Notes: a model not told the origin generated them from the sequence alone. Numbered from the stretch's first letter, positions 2,660 through 17,101 are shown. The stretch: 64,000 nucleotides of DNA from Candidatus Latescibacterota bacterium (GCA_965208835.1 OZ242358.1:3936001-4000000), one strand, 5' to 3'. Made by a program: numbers and translations.

Positions 2660-3448
2660 CTATTCCACGTCGGCGCCGATCCGGTATTGTTCGAGATTTC
2701 CCCTGTATTGCAGACCGAGAATCTCACGGGACCGTGCGACATTGCACGTTTTTTCGGCACCCGGCGTCCCCACGACGTGGAATACGTCGAAGTCTATATC
2801 CTGGGACTCCAGGCCCAGCCGGCAGGCTTCCGCGAGGTCGTGGCGGCACACCCAGCCCTGGCGGTAGGGGCGCGCTTCCGTACCCAGTTTTTCCCTGTAG
2901 CGGCCGATCCCGAGCCTGCTGTCAACGATGTAATCAGGCCGGAGCACGATGATGCGCAGCCCGAACGCGTCGTAAAACTGCCGGCACATCTCTTCCTGGA
3001 GGCGTTTCGTGACGCCGTAGAGGCCGCCGTCGGGACGCCTGACGTCGGCCGAGAAGAAGATGCCCCCGGGATGGGCGGTCTGGCACGAACCGATGTGCAC
3101 GATTCTCCCGATGCCGTGCCGCCGGGCGGATTCCAGCACGTTCCAGAGCCCCTTGACGTTGATAAGGAAGGGCTTTGCGTCGTCTGTGCCATGGGCGCCG
3201 GGTTCGTCCGAGTGGTACACCGCCATGTGCAGAACCGCGTCCATGCCCGCCACGGCACGATGAACGGCATCGAAATCCACGATATCACCGTGCACGACGT
3301 CGCCGCCCGTCCACTCGCCGTCGGTATCGTTCCAGGCTTGCCAGGCCTGCGGGCCGTAGTCGAAAGCCCGGATCCGATGGTTCCCGTCCAAAGCGGCCAG
3401 CGCCGCCCTTCCCAGCCAGCCCGCCGCGCCGAATACGACAATGTTCAT
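2660..3448 (-). CDS. NAD-dependent epimerase/dehydratase (extended SDR)
   Basis: GAAGWLG Rossmann motif and YGVTK (YxxxK) catalytic motif. Confidence 0.85.
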   Translation of the reverse strand: MNIVVFGAAGWLGRAALAALDGNHRIRAFDYGPQAWQAWNDTDGEWTGGDVVHGDIVDFDAVHRAVAGMDAVLHMAVYHSDEPGAHGTDDAKPFLINVKGLWNVLESARRHGIGRIVHIGSCQTAHPGGIFFSADVRRPDGGLYGVTKRLQEEMCRQFYDAFGLRIIVLRPDYIVDSRLGIGRYREKLGTEARPYRQGWVCRHDLAEACRLGLESQDIDFDVFHVVGTPGAEKTCNVARSREILGLQYRGNLEQYRIGADVE

Positions 3449-3478: not shown

Positions 3479-4885
3479 TCAGAACTTCTCCCCTGCAAGT
3501 CCGTATTTCCTGTAATAGTGACGAAATTGATCGTAGCTCAAGCTGAGCGACTCGGCCGCCTTGCGCTGGTTCCAGTTTGCGCGGCTCAGCGCGCTTCTGA
3601 GCAGGCCGAGTTCAAATGCCGTGACCTGATCGTCAAACCCGTCTCCGGGTGCGGCCACGGCCTCGCTGGTGATTTCCGGCGGCAGGTCCCGCGGCTCGAT
3701 GGACGCGCCCGTTGCCATGCACGCGGCGCGTTCGACGGCGAATTTGAGCTCACGCACGTTTCCAGGCCACGCGTAACCCAACAGCTGGCGCAGGGCGCTT
3801 TCCGAAAACGGTCGGGCCTCGAGGCCCGGCACCTCCCGGACGATCTGTTCGACGAAAAATCCGGCGAGCGGATGGATGTCTTCACGACGCTCCCGAAGCG
3901 GAGGAATGCGGATGATTTCAAAACGCAGGCGGTCGTAGAGATCCTGCCGGAAACGGCCTTCACCAATCTCGCGCTCGAGGTTGGCATTCGTGGCGGCAAT
4001 GATACGTACGTCCACGCTGGTCGGCGCGGCGCCACCCACCCGTTGAATTTCCTGGTACTCGATGGCGCGCAAGACGTTCTGCTGGAACTCGGGCGTGGTG
4101 TTGCCGATCTCGTCCAGCAACAGAGTGCCGCCGTTTGCCGCTTCAAACCGGCCCGGCCGGGCTTCCGTGGCTCCGGTAAAGGCGCCTTTCTCATGGCCGA
4201 AGAGCTCGCTTTCCAGGAGGTTGGCGGAAAGGGCGGCGCAGTTGACTTTGACGAATGGACGATCTCTTCGTAACCCGCCGTAGTGGATCGCTGCGGCTAC
4301 GAGTTCCTTTCCGGTTCCGGGTTCGCCGAGAACCAGGACCGGTCGGGGTATGGAAGCGATGCGCTCTGCCTGTTGCATAATCCGCAGCATCTGGGAGCTG
4401 GCGTTTACCGTCCGGTACTTCTTCCCGAATTCGTCCCGGTAGAAACGGTTCTCCCGGTCCAGATCCTTTACCCTGGCCTGGAGGCGCGCGTTCTCCTTGA
4501 GTACGGCAAGTACGCGGTCGAGTTTTTCGAGGCTGAGTTCGAGCCTGTCCTCTATATAGAAATCCTTCTCGATAAAGTCGGAAGCACCCATGCGCAGGGC
4601 CGCAACGGCATTTTCCACGGTGCCCTTGCCCGTGAGGATAATGACCGGCAAATCGGGTGCGAGATCGCGAATCTGGCGAAGGATTTCGAGACCGTCCGGC
4701 TCGGCCGGTCCGAAATCGATATCCAGAATGGCCATGTCAACGTCCGAAACGTGCTTTCGCAGGTACGCAAAGGCGGCTCTTCCTGTTGGGAAAGCCCTCA
4801 CGATCCGGCCATCAACCTGAAGGCTTCGCGTGAGCATGCCCAGGATTTCGGACTGGTCGTCTGCGACAACGATTTGCGGGTTCAT
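3479..4885 (-). CDS. Sigma-54 enhancer-binding response regulator with a PspF-like AAA+/HTH region
   Basis: N-terminal receiver domain (ADD, ILDID, FIEK), Walker [15 protein letters not shown], Walker B LLDEIG, and C-terminal [23 protein letters not shown] resembling the PspF HTH. Confidence 0.92.
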
Positions 4886-4888
4886 GAC

Positions 4889-6517
4889 TTACTCGATGAA
4901 TTCCTCGGCCAGCGGCAGCCTGGATGAAGATATCGGATCGCCGCTCCAGCCGATGCTGTCTGTTTCGGAAACGAGTTCGAAGTCCACCGGAATGTCGATG
5001 CGAAACACGGCTCCGGCGCCCGGTCTGCTGATCATGCGCAGGTTTCCCCTGTGGGCGGACACGATGCGCGAGCAGATGCTCAGGCCGAATCCATTGCCCT
5101 TTTCTTTGGTTGAGAACCCGGGATCGAAGATTCTGCCCTGGATCTCTTCCGATATGCCGGGCCCGTCGTCTTCCACTTCGATGAAAACCGAAGCCCGCTT
5201 ATTGTCGTAGCCGGCCTGTACCGTGACCACACCCTCCTCGTCTACGGCGTCCAGTGCGTTCAGAATCAGGTTGGTGACGGCTTCCCGCAACATGCCGGGG
5301 TCGACCTTGACCTGCGGAACCTGCGGCTCGTACACGAAGCGGAGCAACGCACCGCCGGTACGGGTAGAGACTGTCTCCCTGATTCTGCCCAACAACGGCG
5401 GAACGTCAACCAGTGTGGGGTTCAACGGGTCCTGCTTCATGCTGCGCAGATAGGCGACCCATTGGTCGTAGATGTGCTCCTGGTCCCGGGCGATCCCTGT
5501 CAGATCATCGAGAAATCTGTCTTCCTGCGGGACCCTTCGAATCAGCCGGCGTGTACGACTCCCGACCAGTCCCATCAGGTTCTTTATCTGGTGGCCCCGC
5601 GTGTACAGGCTCTCACCCACCTGCACACGCCCCATGTCGATGAGTTCGAGGGATAACCGTGCCAGAACCGAGGCTGCCTTTGCGCCGAACTCTTCGATGA
5701 TGGTCGTATATTCCTGCTCCATCTGCGCCGAACTCTTGTGATCGAACAAGAGATGCGCCAGGTTTCTGTAGGGCAGCGCGTAGTCCGGCTCGAGCTGGAT
5801 GGCTATCTTGAATGCGCCAAGTGCCTGGAGGGTCTGACCCGCTTGCATGAGCAGAACCCCAAGGTTGTTGTGACCCGGCGCGAACAGCGGATTCGCTTCA
5901 AGACCGCGACGGTAAACCATGATCGCTTCATCGACGTTTTCCGGAAGGTCGTCGAGGAAGCTGGCGAGCAGGAAGCAGGTGCCGTCCACGTTGCCGAAGG
6001 GCACCCCCCGATCCACGGCATCCAGAATATAACGAAGCGCGTCGACCGCCTGTTGCCGACCCGTCGATCCCGATTCCGCGCCCTCTGCCCGCAAGAGCGC
6101 CAGTTGAAAGTGCGCCGCCAGATGGTCAGGATCAAACCTGGTGGCGGCTTCGAGGTCCTTCAGTCCCCCTTTGAATCCGCCCTTGATCCGGCACAGGCCC
6201 ATCTTGAAATGCATGTCCGCGGCGCGGTCCGGGACAAGATCCAGGCAGACGGTAAAGCAGTCCAGCGCGTCCCCCCAACTGCCCTGTCTGAAGTGTACAA
6301 CGCCCAGGTTATGGCGCGCCCGCACATTCCCGGCATCCTCCGTCAATGCCGCCAGGTAGGCTGCTTCGGCACTCGCCAGGTCGCCAGTTTCCATCGCGTT
6401 GTCGCCGCCACGGCAGTGCCTCCGGGCGTCGGCATTCCCGGATTCAGGCAGGGTCCGGGCGATACCGATACGGTCGGACGGGGCCGGCGCGTTGTCCGGT
6501 AATTCGGATTTATTCAA
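4889..6517 (-). CDS. TPR-repeat sensor histidine kinase (apparently soluble)
   Basis: TPR helices (ARHNLGVVH, GHNNLGVLL), H-box-like GHQIKNLMG, N-box NLILNALDA, G1 EDDGPGI, F-box IFDPGFSTK and G2 GNGFGL; no evident transmembrane segment. Confidence 0.88.
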   Translation of the reverse strand: MNKSELPDNAPAPSDRIGIARTLPESGNADARRHCRGGDNAMETGDLASAEAAYLAALTEDAGNVRARHNLGVVHFRQGSWGDALDCFTVCLDLVPDRAADMHFKMGLCRIKGGFKGGLKDLEAATRFDPDHLAAHFQLALLRAEGAESGSTGRQQAVDALRYILDAVDRGVPFGNVDGTCFLLASFLDDLPENVDEAIMVYRRGLEANPLFAPGHNNLGVLLMQAGQTLQALGAFKIAIQLEPDYALPYRNLAHLLFDHKSSAQMEQEYTTIIEEFGAKAASVLARLSLELIDMGRVQVGESLYTRGHQIKNLMGLVGSRTRRLIRRVPQEDRFLDDLTGIARDQEHIYDQWVAYLRSMKQDPLNPTLVDVPPLLGRIRETVSTRTGGALLRFVYEPQVPQVKVDPGMLREAVTNLILNALDAVDEEGVVTVQAGYDNKRASVFIEVEDDGPGISEEIQGRIFDPGFSTKEKGNGFGLSICSRIVSAHRGNLRMISRPGAGAVFRIDIPVDFELVSETDSIGWSGDPISSSRLPLAEEFIE

Positions 6518-6542
6518 TCGGTTACACCTCGATCAAACGGGT

Positions 6543-8057
6543 TTATTCAGAGGCTTTTTCGGTTTTGTCTTCAGTGCCGTCCGCCGGATTCATCCCGCCT
6601 GCCATCCTGCCCAGAAACTCCGGCAGTTCCAGACCCGCCAGTTTTGCCAGTTCGTGCATGGGAGGAATGGCGCCCATCAGACGCTGACCGAGGTTGGTCA
6701 TACCTCCCTGTCCGTTGCCGCCGTCCCAGACCACGATCTTTTCCAGCGGGAGATTCCGAATGGCTTCGGCCTGTATGCCCGCAACCTCGGTCAACCGCTC
6801 CACGATGAGGAAGGCGGCGGCAGCCTGGTCCTTTCCGCCGCACGCGGCAACCAACTCCTTATAACCTTCGGCCTTGGCATCAAGGATGGCCTGGGTGCCC
6901 TCTGCTTCGGCCCTCCTCTCCGCCAGAATCGCGGCGGCCTCGCCTTCAGCCACAAGTGTTTTTCGGGTTTTCTCCGCCTCGGCCTGCACAACCAGCTTCT
7001 GTTTCTGCGCCTCGGCCTCTACGACGATTTCGGCCCTGAGTCGGGCTTCTTCGCGCAGCGACCGGGCTTCCTCGGCCTCTCTCTCCGCCTTTTCCTGGGC
7101 GACCCGGATGGCGCCGTCGGCGGCCTTGGCCGCCTCCTGTCCCGTCTGGCGCGCGACCTCTTCTGCTACCGTCTGCTGCGCCATGTAACCGGCCTTTTTT
7201 GAATCGGCCTCAGCCTCGGCCTGCACCGCTTCCGCGTCCAGAGCAGAGACCATCTGGCGTTTGTTTCTGGTGGCCTCCGCCTCCCCGATCTGGGCTTCGG
7301 ATTCCAGTGCGGCAACCCTCTGTCGCCTGTCCGTGGCGGCTTCCGCCTCGCCGATATCGGCGGCCGCGTTCGCGGCAGCCACGTCCGTACGCTGGTCACG
7401 CTCCCGTTCGGCCACACCCACCTTGCCCATTTTCTCCTGCTCGGCCACGTCGATGGCCGCCTGGTTGATGGCTTCGGCAGCCGCTTTCTGACCAAGGGCC
7501 TTGATATAGCCGCTCTCGTCTTCGATATCCTTGATATTCACATTGATCACGGAGAGACCGATTTTCTCCATTTCGGTTGACACGGCGTCATTGACCTTGG
7601 ACATAAACGCCTGCCGGTCCCGGTTGATTTCTTCGATTTCCATTGTGGCGATCACCGCCCGCATCTGGCCGAGGATGATATCCTGCGCCTGACTCTCGAT
7701 CTGTTCGCGCGAAAGACCCAACAGTCGGATTGCCGCATTTTGCATCACGCCGGTCTGATTTGAAACCGCTGCCGTGACGGTTGTGGGAACCGACACACGG
7801 ATGTTCTCCTGGGAAAGCGCGTTGTCCAGGTCTATGGGAACGACGAACGGCTCCAGGTCCAGATACTCGTAGTCCTGAAGGAGCGGAAGGACGAAGGCAG
7901 CGCCCCCATGTACGCACTTTGCGGCCCCTTTTCCGGTCTTTCCGTAGACGACCAGTATCTTGTTGGAGGGACACCGTTTGTACCTGGAAATGAACGTCAC
8001 GAACAGAAGAAACACCACCAGCAGCAAAATGATCGTTAGAATCGTCTCGGTTGCCAT
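6543..8057 (-). CDS. Flotillin family (SPFH/band 7) protein, FloT-like
   Basis: N-terminal TM helix, SRYKRCPSNKILVVYGK, SPFH domain, long A/E-rich coiled coil and KIVVWDGG tail. Confidence 0.92.
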   Translation of the reverse strand: MATETILTIILLLVVFLLFVTFISRYKRCPSNKILVVYGKTGKGAAKCVHGGAAFVLPLLQDYEYLDLEPFVVPIDLDNALSQENIRVSVPTTVTAAVSNQTGVMQNAAIRLLGLSREQIESQAQDIILGQMRAVIATMEIEEINRDRQAFMSKVNDAVSTEMEKIGLSVINVNIKDIEDESGYIKALGQKAAAEAINQAAIDVAEQEKMGKVGVAERERDQRTDVAAANAAADIGEAEAATDRRQRVAALESEAQIGEAEATRNKRQMVSALDAEAVQAEAEADSKKAGYMAQQTVAEEVARQTGQEAAKAADGAIRVAQEKAEREAEEARSLREEARLRAEIVVEAEAQKQKLVVQAEAEKTRKTLVAEGEAAAILAERRAEAEGTQAILDAKAEGYKELVAACGGKDQAAAAFLIVERLTEVAGIQAEAIRNLPLEKIVVWDGGNGQGGMTNLGQRLMGAIPPMHELAKLAGLELPEFLGRMAGGMNPADGTEDKTEKASE

Positions 8058-8208
8058 CGCAATCCCTCCTCAAATGAATATTCCACCATTGAACGAGATC
8101 ACTCCCGGGGGAGGATTCCAACCGGTTTCAATTCTCGATCCTTCTTCCGCGTTGTCGCGGGCCCGCAATCAGGACACTGCAAGCAAGGAGTTCGGAACCG
8201 GAAGTCAA

Positions 8209-8805
8209 TCAGGACGTGATGGGCTCGACCTCAAGCGTGGTTGGACTAACCACCCGGAGAATGCGGACAGGCGTTTTGGCCGAGACCGGCATGCCGTTTT
8301 TTCCGCGGGCAGATACGTAGGCGACCGTCCCGCTCTCTATCACCCGGACCTGCCCTGTGCCGCCCTCCGGTATATCCAGATACACTTCTCCCGACGTGCC
8401 GACGCAGGTATCCAGGCTGGCATTTCCAGTCTCGGTGAGCTGCCGGATGCCGTGGAAGAAATAGGCCACGACCGCCATGCCCGCGCTGCCCCAGACAAGC
8501 GCGTAGACAAGGGCGGTTCGAACTTCCAGCCCTCTTTGCAGATAGAGAGCGCCGGCCCACCCGAACAGCATGCCAAAGGCAATGAGAGACCTGATAGAAA
8601 GCAGCTTGAAAGAGGCAACCGTACCGTCGTTGAACTCCGGCCCGGAATCGCCGAAGTTCGCATCTCCAGACACGGCCGCGTCCGCACCTCCTCCGAGACC
8701 GAGCAAAGCCGCCAGGAGTTGCCAGACGAAAAACGCACTGAAGAAAATCGCCACGACGTAGAAAATCTGGTTGAGTACGGTCAGTTCCATCCACCAGCTA
8801 TCCAT
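8209..8805 (-). CDS. NfeD-like membrane protein (flotillin partner)
   Basis: Several TM helices followed by an OB-fold-like GTSGEVYLDIPEGGTGQVRV...VRILRV; lies directly upstream of the flotillin. Start taken at MDSWW. Confidence 0.85.
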   Translation of the reverse strand: MDSWWMELTVLNQIFYVVAIFFSAFFVWQLLAALLGLGGGADAAVSGDANFGDSGPEFNDGTVASFKLLSIRSLIAFGMLFGWAGALYLQRGLEVRTALVYALVWGSAGMAVVAYFFHGIRQLTETGNASLDTCVGTSGEVYLDIPEGGTGQVRVIESGTVAYVSARGKNGMPVSAKTPVRILRVVSPTTLEVEPITS

Positions 8806-9072
8806 ATCCGGCTCCCTTCTTCGTACCTCGTTGAATCTGCGCAGCCGATCTCCTGCAAGTGGACATAACGCGGGCTGCGTCCGGCAGCGTCCTGCGCCGC
8901 GAAATGTGATATAGAATATTCTCTGCGTCAATACAAAATCGTGACGGTTTCAGCAGGTGTCTGCCGATGCCGGGCCATTCACTGACCGTGATATCGTCCG
9001 GGAAACCGGCTGAATTTCAATGGCTGGCACCCTGGATCCCGGACCTGATCCCGGACCGGCCGTTATGCGGCA

Positions 9073-9648
9073 TCAGGAGGGCATCAGCCCCCGCTTCTTG
9101 AATTCGCCCTTCAATTGGTAACGTCCGCGGTTGAGCCAGGTCTTTACCGTCCCCATCGGAATCTGAAGCGCCAGGGTGATCTCTTCGTAGGACCAGTCCC
9201 GGACATAACGCATCCAGACGACCTTGCGGTACCTGGCCGGCAATGCGCGAATGCTCTTCCTGACCAGTTCGCGCTGCTGGTTTCGCTCCACCGAGACTTC
9301 CGGATTCTCGTCCACAACGGGCATGCGCGTGGCATCGGCGAGGGCCGCGGGGTCGTCGGTTACCTTTATCCACCTTCGGCGCACCTGCTGTTTGCGAAAG
9401 TGGGATTTGTGCACGTTCAGCGCAATCTGGGTAAGCCAGGTGGCGAATGCGGCCTCGCCTCTGTACGAGCCAAGAGCACCATACGCCTTCAGAAAGGCGG
9501 TTTGAACAAGATCCTGCGCGGTTTCTGGATCGCTCGTCCGTCGCACCATCGTCGCGTAGATTTGTTCATGACAGGCCCGGTAAAGAACACCAAAGGCAGC
9601 CGCGTCGCCATCGATTGCCCTTCGGACCAGATACTGTTCGTTTTCCAT
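9073..9648 (-). CDS. ECF RNA polymerase sigma factor (sigma-70 family)
   Basis: Region 2 AQDLVQTAFLKAY...FATWLTQIALN and region 4 SYEEIT...MGTVKTWLNRGR. Confidence 0.93.
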   Translation of the reverse strand: MENEQYLVRRAIDGDAAAFGVLYRACHEQIYATMVRRTSDPETAQDLVQTAFLKAYGALGSYRGEAAFATWLTQIALNVHKSHFRKQQVRRRWIKVTDDPAALADATRMPVVDENPEVSVERNQQRELVRKSIRALPARYRKVVWMRYVRDWSYEEITLALQIPMGTVKTWLNRGRYQLKGEFKKRGLMPS

Positions 9649-9679
9649 TTATTGGATTTCCTCTTTGAGGTACTGTGAA

Positions 9680-9856
9680 TTACCTGGCGTAACCGGTCAG
9701 CAGCCGGTAACCCACGTAAATCAGGACGAACGACACAAGCAGTTTGAGGAGCAACAACACGATTTCCAGGGACATGCCGATGAGCTTGATCGCTTCGAAG
9801 ATACCTAGGTACGCACCTATGGCGATAAGTATGATGCCGAGAATCTTTGCGAGCAT
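9680..9856 (-). CDS. Small 58-aa two-helix membrane protein (missing from the ORF track)
   Basis: Manual translation MLAKILGIILIAIGAYLGIFEAIKLIGMSLEIVLLLLKLLVSFVLIYVGYRLLTGYAR*, preceded by an AGAAAGGAAAACCC RBS. Confidence 0.75.
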   Translation of the reverse strand: MLAKILGIILIAIGAYLGIFEAIKLIGMSLEIVLLLLKLLVSFVLIYVGYRLLTGYAR

Positions 9857-9976
9857 GGGTTTTCCTTTCTCGTTCGAGGTGGTGATGTTGACAAAGAATA
9901 CCTTCTGGACTTTGAAACGAACCAGGAGCCCACTCTATCCCTGGTGTGCGCAGGCGGGATCCGATCTCAACGGCAA

Positions 9977-10354
9977 TCAGCCCGGTGGCCCATTGCCTTC
10001 CGTCCTGCCGAGTTTTTCGTCCATGGAAATCAGTACATCCTGAACGTCCGTCATTCTCCGTTCCAGTTCGTTCAGGCGGGCGTTGACCGATTCTGTCTCT
10101 CGGGCGCCAGTTCCACCGGTCTGGCCGCCGGTACGTCGTCTCAGGAATTTCACAACGCTGCCAATCGCAAGGATTGACACGGCAAGGATCACGGAGATTG
10201 ACAGAATTCCCAACGCAATATCCATGACGAAACCCCTGAAGTCGAAATGGTACGTCGGTGCGAGAGGGTCGCCGAAGAGGAATTTCAGCGTTACCGCACC
10301 TATAAAAAACAGGATAAAGACGACGGCGCCCTTGGTAACGAACTCTCGGTTCAT
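9977..10354 (-). CDS. Membrane protein with conserved C-terminal coiled-coil motif (paralog 3)
   Basis: Two TM segments, then RLNELERRMTDVQDVLISMDEKL; GGAGG RBS before MNREF. Confidence 0.75.
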   Translation of the reverse strand: MNREFVTKGAVVFILFFIGAVTLKFLFGDPLAPTYHFDFRGFVMDIALGILSISVILAVSILAIGSVVKFLRRRTGGQTGGTGARETESVNARLNELERRMTDVQDVLISMDEKLGRTEGNGPPG

Positions 10355-10385
10355 CAGGCTTCCTCCTTCGGCTTGCAGTCGTTGT

Positions 10386-10961
10386 TCAGACGCTGGTTTT
10401 GTCTCGCCTGAGCCTCTCATCCAGGGTGATGATCACCTCCTGGAGGTCGTTCAGGCGCTGGTCCACGGCGTCCAGCCGGGATTCCATTCGTTTTGCCCGT
10501 TCGGGACTCATCCCCTTGCCTTCCCTCTTCTTTCTCACATGTATATAGCTCACGAAGCCCCCGGCGAAAATAATCAGACAGATGCCGATTCCGATATCCA
10601 TCGCGATGCCCAGCCCCGTTCCGGATTGAGCCAACTCAAGCCGGTCTGCGACGTCCTCGAGTTTACCGGCAGTTGACTCCAGACGTCTCTGATTTTCCAG
10701 GAACAGTCTCACGCCTTCGTCCGTCAGGCCGGCGGTTTTATCGGACAGGGTAAGCGCGGGAACGTCATCGGCATCTGGCAGCAGGTTCCACCGTTCCGAC
10801 GTGAAGGCCCAGATCACGAACCCGACGGCCGCCATCGCCAGGAATATACCCACAGTGGATCCGCTTGGCTTTTTGTTGCCGGGAGTCATTAAATAAACGG
10901 AAAATCCACCCGCGACCATCAGCAGGCAAAGAGCCAACGCCAATTCCAGTATCCAACTCAT
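10386..10961 (-). CDS. Membrane protein with conserved C-terminal coiled-coil motif (paralog 2)
   Basis: Three hydrophobic segments, then RLDAVDQRLNDLQEVIITLDERL; GGAGG RBS before MSWIL. Confidence 0.75.
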   Translation of the reverse strand: MSWILELALALCLLMVAGGFSVYLMTPGNKKPSGSTVGIFLAMAAVGFVIWAFTSERWNLLPDADDVPALTLSDKTAGLTDEGVRLFLENQRRLESTAGKLEDVADRLELAQSGTGLGIAMDIGIGICLIIFAGGFVSYIHVRKKREGKGMSPERAKRMESRLDAVDQRLNDLQEVIITLDERLRRDKTSV

Positions 10962-11028
10962 CCTTTTCCCTCCTCTGAAATCCCTGCGTTTCGATAATCC
11001 TGAGTCGGATTTCCGGCTAACTGAATTT

Positions 11029-11403
11029 TCAAGCCACCTTATTGACGTTTCGTGTGGCGGCTTCCGTCGTACTGCTCGCCGCCTCGGCATACTTGAAAAA
11101 GCGCGAGAGCCTCGTCACTTCAAGGGCTTTCCGGATCCGACGGGAAACGCCGCTCAGCCTCAGGTCGCCACCGGCGTTTCGGGTGGATTTCAGGCCCGTT
11201 GCCAGTTCACCGAGCATGGCAGCGCCGACACGATTTACGTGCGAAAAGTCGACCACGACCGTGCGAGCGCCGCTGTCCACCAGGTTCGTTATCTTGCGTC
11301 CCAGGGTCGCCGCGTCCGGGTTGGCGACGGGGTCGCCGCTTACGGAGACGACAACCGTCCCATCCTGAATCCGATCGCTTAGGTGAATGCGTTGTGAATT
11401 CAT
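11029..11403 (-). CDS. STAS-domain protein (anti-sigma-factor antagonist-like)
   Basis: VVVDFSHVNRVGAAMLGEL...GGDLRLSGV...KALEVTRL STAS pattern. Confidence 0.85.
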   Translation of the reverse strand: MNSQRIHLSDRIQDGTVVVSVSGDPVANPDAATLGRKITNLVDSGARTVVVDFSHVNRVGAAMLGELATGLKSTRNAGGDLRLSGVSRRIRKALEVTRLSRFFKYAEAASSTTEAATRNVNKVA

Positions 11404-11489
11404 GATTCAATGCTCCGTATTTTGGTCAGGTTTAAATCTGATGATTCCGGATCCTTCTTCTCGACGTTATCCAATGACTTTGCCAAAAT

Positions 11490-11705
11490 TCACGATGCGC
11501 CTCCCGATACCTGGCGATTCAGCTTTTCATCGATCGCGATCATGATTTCCTGGATATCGGTCAATCTCCTGTCGAGGTCGTCCAGTCTGGCATTCAGACG
11601 CTCCTCGACCTTTCCCGGCAAAACCCCCTTGGACTGCCGATCTACGTATTTGTGTACGGCGGCCGCGAGCACTATCAACGCGATTCCAACACCGACTTCA
11701 AACAT
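11490..11705 (-). CDS. Small single-TM protein with conserved C-terminal coiled-coil motif (paralog 1, PspB-like architecture)
   Basis: One TM helix, then RLDDLDRRLTDIQEIMIAIDEKL; GGAGG RBS. Confidence 0.75.
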   Translation of the reverse strand: MFEVGVGIALIVLAAAVHKYVDRQSKGVLPGKVEERLNARLDDLDRRLTDIQEIMIAIDEKLNRQVSGGAS

Positions 11706-11731
11706 GACATCCCTCCGTCAATTTAGTGATA

Positions 11732-12373
11732 TCAAAGTTCATCCACCGGCTTAGCCCGGTGTTTTTCGGACCCGCGTTCAATTTCGGGAAAGTGATACAC
11801 AACGAGACCGGACTCTGACACACGCACCTCGGCGCTGCCGCCGACGGCCAACGCACCGAGGATCTCTTCCGCTTTACCTACCGTCATCCTCCCGTCAGTA
11901 GCCGCCTCCAGAACGGTGACGCTACCGCCTTTCTCCCGGGCGAGCCTGAGCAATCGATGTTGATACTGCGCGTAGCGCCTATGTTCGGCCGACATGTGGA
12001 CCGAGCGGGCAGCGAGCCATAAAACCAGCGCAAGCGCGATGACGGCGATGCCCACAAAAAAGTCCAGAGGGTCGAGGCTGAAGCCGGACGACTGGAATCC
12101 GGAAAAGACTATGCCCATCAGACCGCCGAAAACGAACAGAATCGCTGTGGCTTTCAGCAGGACCGAGAAAGCGTATCGCATAGAGCAACTCCCGTCAGTG
12201 GCCAGATCGGAGAATCGGAAGGACAGCCGACGCGATCGCGGACATCGAACCGTTCCCGGCATCTGCCGCGCGGGTCGGGTCTTCCGGAAATCACGCCATG
12301 CCTCTGTTGCGTCGCGCATCGTTTTATCGATCTCGTACGCGATTTCGTCCAGGATTTTCTGGAATTCACGCAT
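11732..12373 (-). CDS. Membrane protein with C-terminal winged-helix-like domain, coupled to pspA
   Basis: Start overlaps the pspA stop (ATGCGTGA); two TM helices, then LLRLAREKGGSVTVLEAA...EVRVSESGLVVYHFPEI. Confidence 0.7.
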   Translation of the reverse strand: MREFQKILDEIAYEIDKTMRDATEAWRDFRKTRPARQMPGTVRCPRSRRLSFRFSDLATDGSCSMRYAFSVLLKATAILFVFGGLMGIVFSGFQSSGFSLDPLDFFVGIAVIALALVLWLAARSVHMSAEHRRYAQYQHRLLRLAREKGGSVTVLEAATDGRMTVGKAEEILGALAVGGSAEVRVSESGLVVYHFPEIERGSEKHRAKPVDEL

Positions 12374-13043
12374 CGGATTTGCGGATCTTTTTCTTCAGGG
12401 CCTCGAGTTCCTCTTCCACCGTGTTCCGTCGTTCCAGTTTTTCGAACGTGTCGTCGAGCGAGGGATCTTCGCCTGCGATTTCGGCGTGAGCGGAAGCCTC
12501 GGCTTCTTCGTTCTCAACCCGGCTGCGGAAACGTTCGAAGCTGGAAAAAGCGTCGTCGCCTATGCCCGAGAGCCCTTGGGCGATCTGCTTCCGCGCCTGG
12601 GCGGCGCGTCGCCGCGCGATGAGGGCGCCCTGGCGGGTGCGTGCCTCGTCCAGTTTGGACTTCAGCTGCGACAGTTGCTTCTTGAGTTGATCGGAGGTCT
12701 TGTGGCTCTCTTCGAACGCGACTTCCAAATCGCGGGCGGCTTTTTCAACCGTGGACTTTCGTTCCAGCGCGCGCCGGGCGAGGTCGTCCTCACCGGATTC
12801 CACGGCGAGTTCGGCCTTCTTCTGCCACGCCTCGATCTGGTCCGTCTTATCCAGCAGTTGACGCTCCAGGCGCTTCTCGTTGGCGACGGCGGTCCCGACG
12901 GACGCCGTCGCCTTGTTCACGGCCTCTTCCATTTCGAGGATCATCTGCCGGATCATCTTTTCCGGATCTTCCGCGCGATTCAGAAGGTCGTTTATGTTGG
13001 CCTTGATAATGTCCGCCATTCTGGAGAAAATTCCCTTCGCCAT
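12366..13043 (-). CDS. pspA: PspA/IM30 (Vipp1/LiaH) family protein
   Basis: MAKGIFSRMADIIKANINDLLNRAEDPEKMIRQMILEM...KAELAVESGEDDLARRAL...VEEELEALKKK; AAGGAG RBS. Confidence 0.95.
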   Translation of the reverse strand: MAKGIFSRMADIIKANINDLLNRAEDPEKMIRQMILEMEEAVNKATASVGTAVANEKRLERQLLDKTDQIEAWQKKAELAVESGEDDLARRALERKSTVEKAARDLEVAFEESHKTSDQLKKQLSQLKSKLDEARTRQGALIARRRAAQARKQIAQGLSGIGDDAFSSFERFRSRVENEEAEASAHAEIAGEDPSLDDTFEKLERRNTVEEELEALKKKIRKSDA

Positions 13044-13135
13044 GATTATACTCCTTTCTCTTGCGGGTGTCCGTAGCCCGTCACGGTAAAAAATCCCAGA
13101 ATCTGTCACACATCCGCCGATCTACCGTCCACTTA

Positions 13136-13153
13136 TTGCAAGGACCGTGCCCA
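13136..13153 (-). promoter_or_regulatory. Sigma-54 -24/-12 promoter of the pspA operon
   Basis: Minus strand reads TGGGCAC-GGTCC-TTGCAA, matching the GGCAC-N5-TTGC consensus, about 95 bp upstream of pspA. Confidence 0.85.
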
Positions 13154-13237
13154 TTTGACAATAAGCCATAGAATTATTTAAATATCTGTTATTTATTGAT
13201 TTATTTCTTAATCCCTTGTACGGTTGTCGACGACTGT

Positions 13238-13273
13238 TGGTGAAATACACCAGATACAAGGCGAAAACGACCG
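13238..13273. promoter_or_regulatory. Putative enhancer (UAS) pair for the PspF-like activator
   Basis: Palindrome TGGTG-AAATA-CACCA (13238-13252) and degenerate AGGCGAAAACGACCG (13259-13273), separated from the sigma-54 site by an AT-rich tract. Confidence 0.6.
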
Positions 13274-13414
13274 ACTTGCATCGGCTCCGGAGGCTCGTTC
13301 ACGTCCATAGCCGACTTGTCTTTTTCGGACAAATGGCGTAAAGTTTGGAGTCCTCTAACCTGAGCGATCGGTGTAGCTGCGGGATTTTTCGAGTTTCCGT
13401 GTAAGTCGGCCAAT

Positions 13415-14536
13415 ATGGACAAGTACAGACAACTGCGCATGCTGAGCGCCGGGCTTTGCCTGGTCATGTTATGTGCAAGCCCTCTTGCCGGGCTTTCGCT
13501 GGTCTACAAGGTTCGTAAGGGCGATTCCCTGTGGTCGATTGCCCGAAAACACCAGACCAGCATCGGGGCGATCAAGCGGATCAACAAGCTGCGGACCAAC
13601 AACGTCTATCCGGGTCAGGTACTCCGTCTGACACCACGGATTGTCAAGTATAACGCAGCGAACGGACCTTATTACTACCGCAAGCCCACTGCCGGCAGGC
13701 AGAGGCATCGGAATTACAGGGAACGTTCGCGTTCGTCCCCGAAGACGGACTATACACGCGCACGAACCCTCCTGCAAGCCTTCGATGCACAAATTTTCGC
13801 CAAAGCCCCGAAAAAGAGATGGCAACCGCTCAAGGGCTGGCGGATTGTGCTTGACCCCGGACATGGGGGTATCGATCCGGGAGCGATCGTTTCGAATACA
13901 ACGGGCAAGGATAGACGGGTATATGTGGTCGAGGATGAATACGTGTACGACATCGCGCTGCGCATGTACAAGAGACTCCGGCTTCTGGGTGCCGAGGTCG
14001 CATTGACGGTGATCAGCCCGAATCACCTGATCCGGGACAACCTGCCGGCCCGCACGACGTTTGTCCACGAACAGAACGAAGTCTACAACGATGAGCGGTA
14101 CAACAGGAGAAATTCGGAAAAGGTGAGACCCAGGAGCGCCAATCTCTCACAGCGAGTCCGGGTGGCGAATCGTTTTTTCAAGAAGGCGCGCAGAGACAGG
14201 TGTCTGTTTGTCTCGCTGCACGCGGATAACACCCCCGGGCGCCCGCAAGGTCCGCTGGTGATCTATCACAAGAGGCGGGGCAGGGTTGACAGGCGTTCCA
14301 GGTCCTTCGCCCGGGTCATGCGTTCGGCCCTGCACCGGCCGAACCTGCCCGCGGGGGACCGGGGGAGGAACCTCGCGGTCCTGCGGAACAACCTGGCTCA
14401 CGCCGAAATTCTCGTTGAAGTTCACAACGTCCACCACAAGCACGAGGCCTGGCTGATTCGACGTCATCCGATACGCGAGCAGAACGCGGACCGAGTCGTT
14501 AAGGGAATCCTGGCTTACGCAAAAAAACGAAGATGA
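13415..14536 (+). CDS. LysM-domain N-acetylmuramoyl-L-alanine amidase (Amidase_3)
   Basis: Signal peptide, LysM (YKVRKGDSLWSIARKH), and Zn-amidase motifs LDPGHGG, SLHAD and ILVEV. Confidence 0.88.
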   Translation: MDKYRQLRMLSAGLCLVMLCASPLAGLSLVYKVRKGDSLWSIARKHQTSIGAIKRINKLRTNNVYPGQVLRLTPRIVKYNAANGPYYYRKPTAGRQRHRNYRERSRSSPKTDYTRARTLLQAFDAQIFAKAPKKRWQPLKGWRIVLDPGHGGIDPGAIVSNTTGKDRRVYVVEDEYVYDIALRMYKRLRLLGAEVALTVISPNHLIRDNLPARTTFVHEQNEVYNDERYNRRNSEKVRPRSANLSQRVRVANRFFKKARRDRCLFVSLHADNTPGRPQGPLVIYHKRRGRVDRRSRSFARVMRSALHRPNLPAGDRGRNLAVLRNNLAHAEILVEVHNVHHKHEAWLIRRHPIREQNADRVVKGILAYAKKRR

Positions 14537-14623: not shown

Positions 14624-17101
14624 CTATCTCTCGAATCCCCTGATCCGGAGTGAATTCGAGATCACCGATACGGAACTCATCGCCATGGCGGCGGCCGCCA
14701 CCATGGGCCCGCCGAGCGGGTTGAGAAGGCCGAGAGCCGCCACCGGAATCAACAGTACATTGTAGGCAAACGCCCAGAACAGGTTCTGGCGAATCGTGCG
14801 CACGGTCCGCCCGGACAGGCGGATCGCCGTCTCTATTCCGGTTAGGCTGCCTGACATGAGGGTGATATCCGCGCTTTCCATGGCGACGGCCGTCCCGGTG
14901 CCGACGGCAATGCCAACGTCGGCGGTCGCCAGGGCGGGCGCGTCGTTGACGCCGTCTCCGACCATTGCCACACAATGCCGCCGGTCCTGCAATTCCGAGA
15001 TGCGGGCGGCTTTCTCGTTGGGCATGACCCCGGCAATGACCCGAGGGATTTCCGCGTGTTCCGCGACGGTTACGGCGGTCCTTGCGTTGTCTCCCGTCAG
15101 GAGGATGACGGTCAGGTCAAGTAACTTGAGATCTGCAACGGCGCGGACGGAATCGGGCTTCAGGACGTCGGCCACGCCGATGAGGCCTTCCACCTGATCG
15201 TCGACGGCGACGAAAAGGACCGTTTTACCGTCCGCTTCCAGTCGAGCCGCCTTCGCATCCAGGTCGTCGGTCAATACGACCTGGCTTCCCACCAACCGCC
15301 GGTTGCCCAGTAGAACGGTGCGACCGGCCTTTTTTGCGCGCACGCCCTGCCCCGGCAGGGCTTCGAATTCGTGAGATTCCTCAACGGACAGTTTCCGTTC
15401 CCGCGCCGCGTTCCGGATGGCTTCTCCTAGGGGGTGTTCGGAGCCCTGTTCAACGGACGCTGCCAACCTGAGCAGATCCGATTCCGAGCCTGTACCTGTT
15501 GTGACGAAGTCGGTAACGGCAGGCCTTCCGGTTGTGAGGGTGCCGGTCTTGTCCAGGACGATCGTGTCCAGGCGGTGGGCGGTTTCGAGTACCGGGCCGC
15601 CCTTGATGAGGACGCCCAGTTCCGCCGCCCGGCCGGTGCCGACCAGTATGGCCGTGGGCGTGGCCAGGCCCAGCGCGCACGGACAGGCGATAATGAGGAC
15701 GGCAACGGCGTTGAGCAACGCGTGTGAGGCGCCGGATCCGGAACCGGCAATCCACCACAGGACGAACGTAAGCAGGGCGACGCCGAAAACGACCGGCACA
15801 AAGATCCCGGCAACCCGGTCCGCGACCCGCTGAACGGGAGCGCGCGAGCCCTGGGCCTGTCGAACCATCCGAACGATCCGGGCGTGTACCGTTTCGGCGC
15901 CGACCTGTGTAGCCCTTACCGTGAAACTCCCGGTCTTGTTGAGCGTTGCACCCAGAACCCGGCTTTGCCTGCCTTTTTCAACGGGCATGCTCTCACCCGT
16001 GATCACAGACTCGTCGACGCTCGATTGCCCCTCCTGCACGACACCGTCTACAGGGATTCTGTCGCCCGGCCGGATGCGAATGAGGTCGCCCACGGCGACA
16101 TCCTCGACAGGAACCAGCGTCTCCTCGCCGTTCCTGATGACACATGCGGTCTCGGGACGGAGATCCATCAGCGCACGGATGGCGTCGGCGGCGCGGCCGC
16201 GGGACCGGATTTCCAGCAACCGGCCCAGGAGGATGAGGGTGATGATCATGGCGGAGGTGTCGAAGTATACGCTGACGGCCCCGCCCGGACCGGCAACGGC
16301 ATGGGGCGCGGCAACGCCGGCGACGCTGTATCCGTATGCCGCCAGCGTTCCGACGGCAATAAGGCTGTTCATGTCGGCCGTCATGTGCCGCAGGCCGCTC
16401 CAGAACCCCTTTAGAAAGCGCCATCCGCACCAGAATTGTACAGGAGTTGCCAGGAGGAAGAGCAGAAGGTGGACCTGCCGGATGGAGTACGGCGCTCCCA
16501 GGAATTCGTTCAGCATGCCCGCGCTCATTATCAGTATTGACAGCGCGGCCGCGAAAATGAATCGTACGCGGACCGAGCGCTGCTCCGCCCGTTCTTCCTC
16601 CCGCTCTCCGTCGTTCGCGGCGGCGTCCTGTTTCACGACTGTTGCGGCGTACCCTGCATCGATTACCGCGCGCGTCAGCGTGGAATCGGGGACCGCGAAA
16701 TGGCGCACCGTGGCGTGACGGGCCGCGAGGTTGACCTCGCTGTCGACGACGCCGGGAACCCCTGTTAACGCGTTCTCAATTGCGGACACGCAGGCGGCAC
16801 AGTGCATGTCGCGGACGGCGAGTCTCGTCTCGTCCGTGCGGATCCCGTAGCCGAGACTCTCGATTTTTCCAACAAGCCGCTTGACAGCGTCCCGATCAGA
16901 CCTGATCAGGACGCTGGCCTCTCCCGTCGCATAGTTGACGACCGCTTCCTTTGTGCCGTGGTCCTGTCGCAATTCTTCCTGGATGCGGGCGGCGCAGGCG
17001 GCGCAGCTCATCCCGGTAACGGGTAAGGTCAGGCTGACATTACCACTCGACTCTGGAATTTCGGACATGCCGTATCGGTCCTGTTCCTTCCACGGTGCCA
17101 C
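14624..17101 (-). CDS. copA: Copper-translocating P1B-type ATPase
   Basis: Two HMA domains (GMSCAAC, MHCAAC), [29 protein letters not shown] and MAMSS copper ligands. Confidence 0.95.

Follow-up and report, generated by a model that had tools for sequence, protein, structure and literature searches.

A locus of twelve genes in a bacterium of the uncultured phylum Candidatus Latescibacterota (GCA_965208835.1 OZ242358.1:3936001-4000000, a stretch of 64,000 nucleotides that we analysed whole and call the window) probably encodes a self-contained, positively autoregulated envelope-stress system of the phage shock protein (Psp) type. Its ancestral core would have five parts: PspA; a 213-residue protein with two transmembrane (TM) segments and a winged-helix domain, here called wHTH213; at least one PspB-like coiled-coil (cc) membrane protein; a soluble histidine kinase with tetratricopeptide repeats (TPR); and a PspF-type activator that carries a receiver (REC) domain. 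The genome is a metagenome-assembled genome (MAG) in a single contig of 5.18 Mb. Its 12 open reading frames (ORFs) at 3479-13043 run head to tail on the minus strand downstream of one sigma-54 promoter, separated, from pspA onward, by an 8-nt overlap and then by gaps of 26, 86, 67, 28, 120, 31, 264, 151, 25 and 3 bp. A first-pass annotation had listed these genes in this order, and all are present on the minus strand as it gave them. The core features are the following.

13236..13272, minus strand: upstream activator sites, a TGGTG-N5-CACCA dyad within 13236-13253 and a degenerate second dyad at 13260-13272, from an alignment of 21 upstream regions
13137..13152, minus strand: sigma-54 promoter GGGCAC-GGTCC-TTGCA (-24 GG, -12 GC), from a pattern scan, conservation and the presence of rpoN
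12366..13043, minus strand: pspA, 225 aa, ATG at 13043 preceded by GGAG; PF04012 (PspA_IM30) 164.9 bits against a cut-off of 33.9
11732..12373, minus strand: wHTH213, 213 aa, N-terminal helix, two TM segments and, at the C-terminus, an acidic winged helix, from TM and fold prediction; no Pfam match
11490..11705, minus strand: cc71, a 71-aa protein with a single-pass TM segment and a cytoplasmic coiled coil, from TM prediction and motif alignment
10386..10961, minus strand: cc191, a three-TM paralog ending in the cc motif, from TM prediction and motif
9977..10357, minus strand: cc126, a two-TM paralog ending in the cc motif, from TM prediction and motif
4889..6517, minus strand: cytoplasmic histidine kinase with N-terminal TPR, a DHp region (His in RGHQIKN) and HATPase_c at the C-terminus; TTG provisionally taken as start
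3479..4885, minus strand: activator with REC, a sigma-54 AAA+ domain (GAFTGA) and a Fis-type helix-turn-helix (HTH), from domain models, alignment and tree

Gene content and conservation

A Pfam scan of 13 ORFs of the locus left six without a family match even at E<=10, those of 213, 71, 191, 126, 58 and 199 aa. Among the profile searches that the first-pass annotation had named, the PspA_IM30, Band_7 and STAS models matched, and the PspB, PspC and NfeD models were without a match in the operon proteins. The operon PspA is the closest of three genomic PspA paralogs to E. coli PspA (38% identity, 116 bits); it scored 184.7 bits against the equivalog TIGR02977, not reaching the cut-off of 242.95, and 98.8 bits against the LiaH model (cut-off 380). 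Paralog loci lie at G000:C1:262533-263213 (L002) and G000:C1:1142528-1143169 (L003). One further paralog stands in a CesT_Tir_1-PspA-DUF4178 arrangement, a type of context catalogued in the accessible part of Ravi 2024 (PMC11237479), and another between PhyH and XdhC genes, without Psp-type neighbours.

Conservation was measured by tblastn in 47 loci of the same order, the window and 46 relatives, which come from the same species set as the 41- and 168-genome searches described below and are therefore not independent of them. PspA and the 213-aa protein were found in all 47, cc proteins and an extracytoplasmic function (ECF) sigma factor in 45 each, the kinase in 44, the activator in 42, an NfeD-like protein and a flotillin in 36 each, and a STAS-domain protein in 14. 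The five loci without an activator are short or truncated contigs, so that every locus reaching far enough (42/42) carries the full core found at this level: PspA, wHTH213, ECF sigma, kinase and activator. A reduced core recurs in a sister family (f4), from which 10 of the 51 genomes with a wHTH213 match were sampled: all ten loci hold PspA, a shorter wHTH213, one or two cc proteins, the TPR kinase and the REC activator. The locus is therefore kept across relatives, by the gene-neighbourhood comparison that had been suggested as a check on the first-pass annotation.

The ECF sigma factor, NfeD and flotillin were absent from all ten sampled sister-family loci. Since the ECF gene with its small neighbour m58, the NfeD-flotillin pair and the STAS gene are not part of the sister-family core, we regard them as lineage-specific additions. 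The first-pass annotation had treated an ECF-flotillin output as part of the design; this did not hold, as both are missing from the sister loci and NfeD-flotillin is missing as well from 6 of the 42 full-length loci of the order. Five MAGs that carry the same locus (those of L039, L043, L053, L054 and L079) are labelled Gemmatimonadota, a label that is probably outdated.

Sigma-54 promoter and upstream sites

Between positions 3000 and 13600, on both strands, the promoter at 13137-13152 is the sole match to the -24/-12 pattern; the whole 64-kb window has 7 matches on its two strands. The pattern stands 5' of pspA in 46 of the 47 loci of the order, the 47th retaining just 46 bp upstream of pspA, and in 10/10 sister-family loci. 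The genome has one copy of rpoN, and the GAFTGA motif can be read in the translation of the activator, so that the three elements of sigma-54 dependence (a -24/-12 promoter, rpoN and a GAFTGA activator) occur together. The clean sigma-54 promoter described in the first-pass annotation is thus borne out by the uniqueness of the pattern, its conservation in both families and the presence of rpoN.

Farther upstream, 29 of 46 loci have the strict TGGTG-N5-CACCA dyad between -100 and -114 relative to the promoter, where shuffled sequences would give 0.0015 per region, and the second, degenerate dyad sits about 21 bp beyond it. In the sister family the dyad takes the form TGGCG-N5-CGCCA and is present in 10/10 loci, paired 21-22 bp apart in seven and single in three. 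These dyads are the presumed binding site for the operon's own activator. One more conserved element separates them from the promoter.

13174..13201, minus strand: AT-rich spacer between activator sites and promoter, a conserved block with an invariant ACA in the 21-region alignment

The spacer is a possible DNA-bending region of the integration host factor (IHF) type; an exact match to the IHF consensus was not found within 13174-13201. The region as a whole has the anatomy of an enhancer-dependent promoter. Two side observations concern the same region: another dyad, TTTGTC-N7-GACAAG at 13315-13333, is conserved in the intergenic region between pspA and a divergent amidase gene, and an 88-aa ORF at 13201-13467 overlaps the regulatory elements and is probably no gene.

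Histidine kinase and activator

The kinase has no TM segment. Its N-terminal motif LPES..AR is common to other genera, and two genera have shorter N-termini. In the activator, Response_reg matched residues 5-112 with 71.2 bits, and HTH_8 scored 18.7 bits, under its cut-off of 22, with a C-terminus that aligns with the HTH of PspF. REC, AAA+ and Fis-type HTH, together with a kinase gene ending 3 bp upstream, make up the architecture of an NtrC-type response regulator, and the two-component pair proposed in the first-pass annotation was recovered, with REC on the regulator and the TPR kinase adjoining.

The AAA+ domain groups with PspF and not with NtrC. Of 12 bacterial enhancer-binding proteins in the genome, the operon activator is the closest to E. 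coli PspF (261 bits; next 225), to which its AAA+ domain is 45% identical. When the AAA+-HTH part was scored alone, the PspF model led with 349 bits, followed by NifA (331), NorR (297), AtoC (279), NtrC (275) and ZraR (260). A maximum-likelihood tree of 25 AAA+ domains placed E. coli PspF and seven operon activators, drawn from three families, in one clade with support of 100/99; E. coli NtrC, ZraR, AtoC, NorR and FhlA, 11 other activators of the genome and an activator from the metagenome locus L103 fell outside. A 13-row tree gave the same clade a support of 99/98. By these comparisons the protein is a member of the PspF clade; it is no PspF equivalog, as it scores under the cut-off of that model and carries a receiver domain. 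The earlier description of a PspF-like regulator, as opposed to a generic NtrC or ZraR, stands. PspF-type (type Ic) activators lack a sensory domain, according to the accessible parts of Francke 2011 and Kazakov 2015.

Membership of the PspF clade raises the question of whether enterobacterial logic has been kept, with PspA inhibiting the AAA+ domain directly and the receiver and kinase only modulating. The clade membership and the 45% identity to E. coli PspF would fit such an arrangement, as would the fact that the operon pspA is the genome's nearest relative of E. coli pspA. Against this, an Arg in the activator aligns with W56 of E. coli PspF, which we take to be a contact with PspA, and a full receiver and a dedicated kinase are kept in every complete locus; we therefore consider direct inhibition distinctly unlikely. 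A second account holds that a generic NtrC-type two-component system lies beside pspA because the genomes are collinear, without any function dedicated to Psp. The flanks are indeed syntenic in the order (amidase 44/47, Cu-ATPase 41/47), so that local gene order is generally stable there. The kinase and activator genes, however, accompany pspA in the sister family too, which does not share these flanks; the activator belongs to the PspF clade; and a sigma-54 promoter with dyads lies directly 5' of pspA in both families. These observations make an accident of gene order exceedingly improbable.

The 2TM winged-helix protein

The start codon of wHTH213 overlaps the pspA stop by 8 nt, and the gene directly follows pspA in 47/47 loci of the order and 10/10 of the sister family. 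It was matched in 41 of 41 genomes searched (two families, nine genera, G000 included), and a profile found it in 102 of 168 Latescibacterota genomes: 20/21 in family f1, 30/31 in f2, 51/76 in f4 and none in other families. In a structural model (predicted local distance difference test, pLDDT, 69.6), an N-terminal helix is followed by a disordered linker and a two-helix membrane hairpin, and a winged helix forms the C-terminus. Searches with this winged helix (Foldseek, VIA-align) yielded only the generic fold: ArsR, MarR and Z-alpha domains and the ESCRT-II proteins VPS22/EAP30 are tied at Z 9.6-10.0, with the ESCRT-II chains 1w7p_A at Z 9.7 and 3cuq_A at Z 9.6. Since ESCRT-II lies within 1 Z of ArsR, MarR and Z-alpha, the fold does not discriminate among them. 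A match to a solved structure by sequence profile was also sought and rejected, the only hits being spurious ones to de novo TIM barrels.

Charge is more informative. In all 14 sequences compared, the third ('recognition') helix and the wing carry a net negative charge, and over their last 70 residues 20 members of the wider family average a net charge of -4. Because the third helix is net negative throughout, we read the domain as protein-binding and not DNA-binding. This bears on whether wHTH213 might be the anti-sigma factor of the ECF sigma factor, or a membrane-tethered DNA-binding transcription factor. Pfam recognises no canonical anti-sigma factor in the locus, and the C-terminal domain of the protein is folded like DNA binders of the MarR/ArsR type, both of which would suit such a role, but wHTH213 lies beside pspA in ten of ten sister-family loci that have no ECF sigma factor, and the acidic helix and wing argue against contact with DNA. 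Either role is very unlikely.

PspA is a bacterial ESCRT-III-type protein, and ESCRT-II winged-helix domains serve ESCRT-III in eukaryotes and in Asgard archaea. By analogy, the acidic winged helix might serve PspA as a dedicated receptor or nucleator at the membrane, and the cc proteins and the TPR kinase would read the occupancy of this winged helix. We regard this idea as a long shot; if true, the family of about 1190 clusters to which wHTH213 belongs, Pfam-less and built of two TM segments and a winged helix, would amount to a class of membrane-stress adaptors that is widespread and so far unrecognised. A complex prediction for PspA with the winged-helix domain (residues 126-213) gave a score of 0.01 and a mark of 0.32 and was used neither for nor against binding.

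The wider family was drawn from a profile search of 1.84 billion representatives, which returned 1190 proteins at E<=0.001, 126 of them at E<=1e-10. Most are hypothetical proteins of about 150 aa with two TM segments and a winged helix. Of 30 members sampled, 19 belonged to no Pfam family; fusions of the module to RDD and TMEM43 domains also occur. Within one subgroup of about 150 aa, a double zinc-ribbon protein (Zn_ribbon_TFIIB) follows the subgroup gene in the metagenome loci L100 and L104, the latter also with a TPR protein, and a convergent REC-sigma-54 activator lies near it in L100, L103 and L104; pspA is absent from these loci. L100, L103 and L104 may represent another signalling cassette, one that uses the same membrane protein but no PspA.

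Coiled-coil membrane proteins

The three cc proteins of the window end in a shared motif, RLxARxDxLDRRLTDIQ(D/E)xxIxIDEKL, placed behind one TM segment in cc71, three in cc191 and two in cc126, and such proteins occur in 45 of the 47 loci in one to four copies. They have the architecture of PspB, being alike in size and topology. PspB itself (PF06667) was not found anywhere in the genome at E<=1, nor did tblastn with E. coli PspB return a match. Given this architecture, the statement that no PspB-like component is present is true for homology but probably not for function.

Nor were other known Psp partners found. No PspC (PF04024) was detected in the operon, and genome-wide there were only two sub-threshold matches elsewhere, of 14.4 and 13.2 bits (cut-off 25); no LiaF or Toastrack domain was found by Pfam among the 13 ORFs scanned. 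The first-pass annotation had reported no recognisable PspC or LiaF, in agreement with these empty operon scans and with a genome free of PspB and PspC above threshold. As a side observation, a protein with the cc motif in L026 (8582-8941, minus strand) has an N-terminal GAHRFY segment, which presumably resembles a TM2-type domain; if it is a TM2 anchor, this protein would show that the coiled-coil module has been shuffled onto different membrane anchors.

Inserted genes

Between the cc genes and the regulators, and among the cc genes themselves, the window holds five further genes.

11029..11403, minus strand: STAS-domain protein (anti-sigma-antagonist fold), accessory; PF01740 42.6 bits
9680..9856, minus strand: m58, 58 aa with two TM segments, gene 31 bp ahead of the ECF gene, from TM prediction
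9073..9648, minus strand: ECF (group IV) sigma factor; PF04542 (Sigma70_r2) 56.6 bits, PF08281 (r4_2) 50.8 bits, TIGR02937 102.4 against 42.9
8209..8808, minus strand: NfeD/YqiJ-like protein, 199 aa, three TM helices and a C-terminal beta-barrel, from a low-confidence fold, architecture and position
6543..8057, minus strand: flotillin with an SPFH/Band_7 domain, an N-terminal TM segment and a long Ala/Glu-rich coiled coil; PF01145 98.7 bits against 23.6

Thirteen of the 14 loci with the STAS gene belong to the window's genus. The count for m58 (21/47 by tblastn) is an undercount, a 56-aa equivalent that tblastn missed preceding the ECF gene in L030. The ECF sigma factor has regions 2 and 4 without region 3 and reaches none of the cut-offs of named ECF equivalogs; it is present in 45/47 loci of the order and 0/10 of the sister family. 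A Pfam scan recognised no anti-sigma factor for it in the locus, and none of the RsiW type is adjacent. The sigma factor is probably controlled mainly by the amount transcribed, an arrangement that would extend the response to a second regulon. Control by transcription only has precedents in HrpL, through sigma-54 and HrpRS, and in SigE of S. coelicolor, through CseBC, as described in the accessible part of PMC8999054.

We consider the 199-aa protein a probable NfeD-like protein, on the strength of a low-confidence predicted structure, its architecture and its position. The model (pLDDT 57.7) has three TM helices and a five-strand domain, and NfeD-family chains took ranks 1, 3, 4, 10, 11 and 27 in Foldseek, none at E<=0.001; the best rows were 8z5g (E 3.7e-3), 2k14 and 3cp0, and YuaF of B. 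subtilis and the QmcA-YbbJ complex of E. coli were among them. Pfam and NCBIfam gave no match, and hhalign against E. coli YqiJ gave 0.07%, so homology to YqiJ was not shown. Its Atlas neighbours offer no more than a lead, with NfeD_TM on 11% of members and YqiJ domains on 14%. The gene lies immediately upstream of the flotillin gene in 36/36 loci. The flotillin scored 139.9 bits against the FloT equivalog, not reaching the cut-off of 700, and is 25% identical to E. coli YqiK.

Transcription units

We infer the limits of transcription from how the genes are laid out. Non-coding blocks conserved within the genus occur in three gaps, those preceding m58 (120 bp), NfeD (264 bp) and flotillin (151 bp), and one block may be a regulatory site.

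8899..8952, minus strand: conserved non-coding block in the 264-bp ECF-NfeD gap that includes TTGACG and a palindrome, GAATATTC; its conservation is confined to the genus

The block is a candidate internal regulatory element. With such blocks in all three gaps, internal promoters stay a live alternative: the sigma-54 promoter might drive only pspA through the cc genes, and m58-ECF, NfeD-flotillin and perhaps kinase-activator might have ECF-dependent or housekeeping promoters of their own. The ECF sigma factor, and not the activator, would then drive NfeD-flotillin directly, much as the first-pass annotation had proposed. The conserved blocks fit this division, as does the insertion of m58-ECF and NfeD-flotillin as units that vary independently. 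A scan for terminator-like hairpins, however, gave no excess over shuffled sequence (12 against an expected 11.1), no -35/-10 pair of ECF type could be defined across genera, and all genes are co-oriented, with only 25 bp between flotillin and kinase and 3 bp between kinase and activator. We rate several transcription units as rather unlikely and favour transcription of the whole string from the sigma-54 promoter.

Comparison with known systems

Enterobacterial Psp (pspF || pspABCDE of E. coli and Yersinia) resembles the locus in having a sigma-54 promoter with upstream activator sites before pspA, a PspF-clade AAA+ protein, autoregulation and a PspB-sized single-pass coiled-coil protein following pspA. 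It differs in the place of the regulators, which close the gene string at its 3' end here and are divergent there, in the replacement of W56 by Arg, and in the second gene, which here is an unrelated 2TM-winged-helix protein; homologs of PspB, PspC, PspD and PspE were not found in operon and genome searches. In addition, the activator here bears REC and is encoded with a soluble TPR kinase, whereas PspF has no sensory domain (Francke 2011, in the part accessible).

In the liaIH-liaGFSR locus of B. subtilis, too, a dedicated two-component system and small membrane proteins are encoded with a PspA homolog, which that system induces. Its LiaR is a REC-wHTH protein and its LiaS a HAMP membrane kinase, accompanied by LiaF/Toastrack (Ravi 2024, PMC11237479, in the available portion), whereas the locus studied here has a sigma-54 activator and a cytoplasmic TPR kinase.

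In B. subtilis an ECF sigma factor, sigma-W, controls pspA and yuaF-floT. Linkage of PspA with an NfeD-type 3TM protein and flotillin, as probably also in the window, is catalogued in what is accessible of PMC11237479 and PMC9239133; unlike the present locus, the operons listed there are organised around a CesT/Tir-PspA dyad or around HTH regulators. The relevant parts of Popp 2022 (PMC9239133) describe PspA with band-7/FloT and NfeD in Acidobacteriota, and those of Ravi 2024 list PspA with band-7/flotillin and YqiJ/YuaF 3TM proteins, duplications of PspB, NtrC-like regulators with ACT or PAS domains, and operons with classical REC-HTH two-component systems. The ECF gene has a parallel in the HrpRS-sigma-54-HrpL (ECF32) cascade of P. 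syringae, in which an ECF gene also lies downstream of a sigma-54 promoter and has no anti-sigma factor (PMC8999054, accessible part); that cascade controls type III secretion and its HrpR and HrpS have no receiver, whereas here the ECF gene sits inside a stress operon.

A literature search returned nothing on phage shock proteins in Latescibacteria, which are unmentioned in the available text of PMC9239133 and PMC11237479, although supplementary tables or the web app could list the architecture; STAS is likewise unmentioned in that of Ravi 2024. Control by a REC-PspF and a TPR kinase, with the two partner families, was found in the accessible text of neither survey. The first-pass annotation had named prior cataloguing, along with a gene order not kept in relatives and a regulator of the NtrC/ZraR kind, as grounds for giving up its claim to a new architecture, and none of the three applied; on the evidence of these survey texts the PspA-flotillin-NfeD linkage is already catalogued, and what seems new is control by the REC-PspF/TPR-kinase pair and the unusual partners.

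Neighbouring genes

Three genes flank the locus. A gene for an NAD-dependent epimerase (2660-3448, minus strand) starts 30 bp past the activator; being syntenic in only 15/47 loci, it is probably outside the system. On the other side, a LysM-Amidase_3 cell-wall amidase gene (13415-14536, plus strand), divergent from pspA, occupies the same place in 44/47 loci of the order and 0/10 of the sister family, and past it lies a gene for a heavy-metal P-type ATPase with an HMA domain (Cu-ATPase; 14624-17101, minus strand), syntenic in 41/47.

Discussion

The protein-protein contacts and the signal in the scheme that follows are our proposal. The two kinds of membrane protein, of which wHTH213 is translationally coupled to pspA, would sense a membrane defect and recruit or release PspA at the membrane, altering what the TPR domain of the kinase binds. 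The kinase would then phosphorylate the receiver domain of the activator, a step that would replace the direct inhibition of PspF by PspA in enterobacteria, and the activator, assembled on the tandem TGGTG-N5-CACCA sites some 100 bp upstream, would open the sigma-54 promoter. Transcription would raise PspA, the sensors, the kinase and the activator; since the genes of kinase and activator come last in the string, the response would be self-reinforcing. In the window's order, the m58-ECF and NfeD-flotillin modules would have been inserted between sensors and regulators, NfeD-flotillin perhaps supplying a membrane scaffold.

Several results weigh against this proposal. The activator scored 347-349 bits against the PspF equivalog TIGR02974, under its cut-off of 443.55. 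Homology of the cc proteins to PspB was not detected (Pfam at E<=10; hhalign against E. coli PspB, 7%), and the Atlas lead to PspB is weak (score 0.79, PspB on 14% of the cluster). None of 12 metagenome loci of the ~150-aa wHTH213 subgroup has pspA nearby; the neighbours among these loci include a REC-sigma-54 activator in three, a zinc-ribbon protein in two and a TPR protein in one, so that wHTH213 could serve the kinase or the activator instead. An ECF-type -35/-10 pair common to several genera was not definable before m58, NfeD or flotillin, and the long gaps with conserved blocks would permit several transcription units.

Psp and IM30 proteins are universal membrane-repair factors, and to our knowledge the switching-on of Psp is understood in only three model lineages. 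The locus described here would be a fourth Psp wiring, kept across a class of an uncultured phylum, in which a soluble TPR kinase controls a PspF-clade activator by phosphorylation, in place of control by PspA binding, and in which two partner families without a database model stand in for PspB and PspC. Its variation between lineages reveals the insertion of an ECF sigma factor and a flotillin scaffold into an existing stress operon. With few and clearly defined parts, it would make what Psp systems sense testable in a new context, and it would offer a first functional handle on a large hypothetical family of 2TM-winged-helix proteins.

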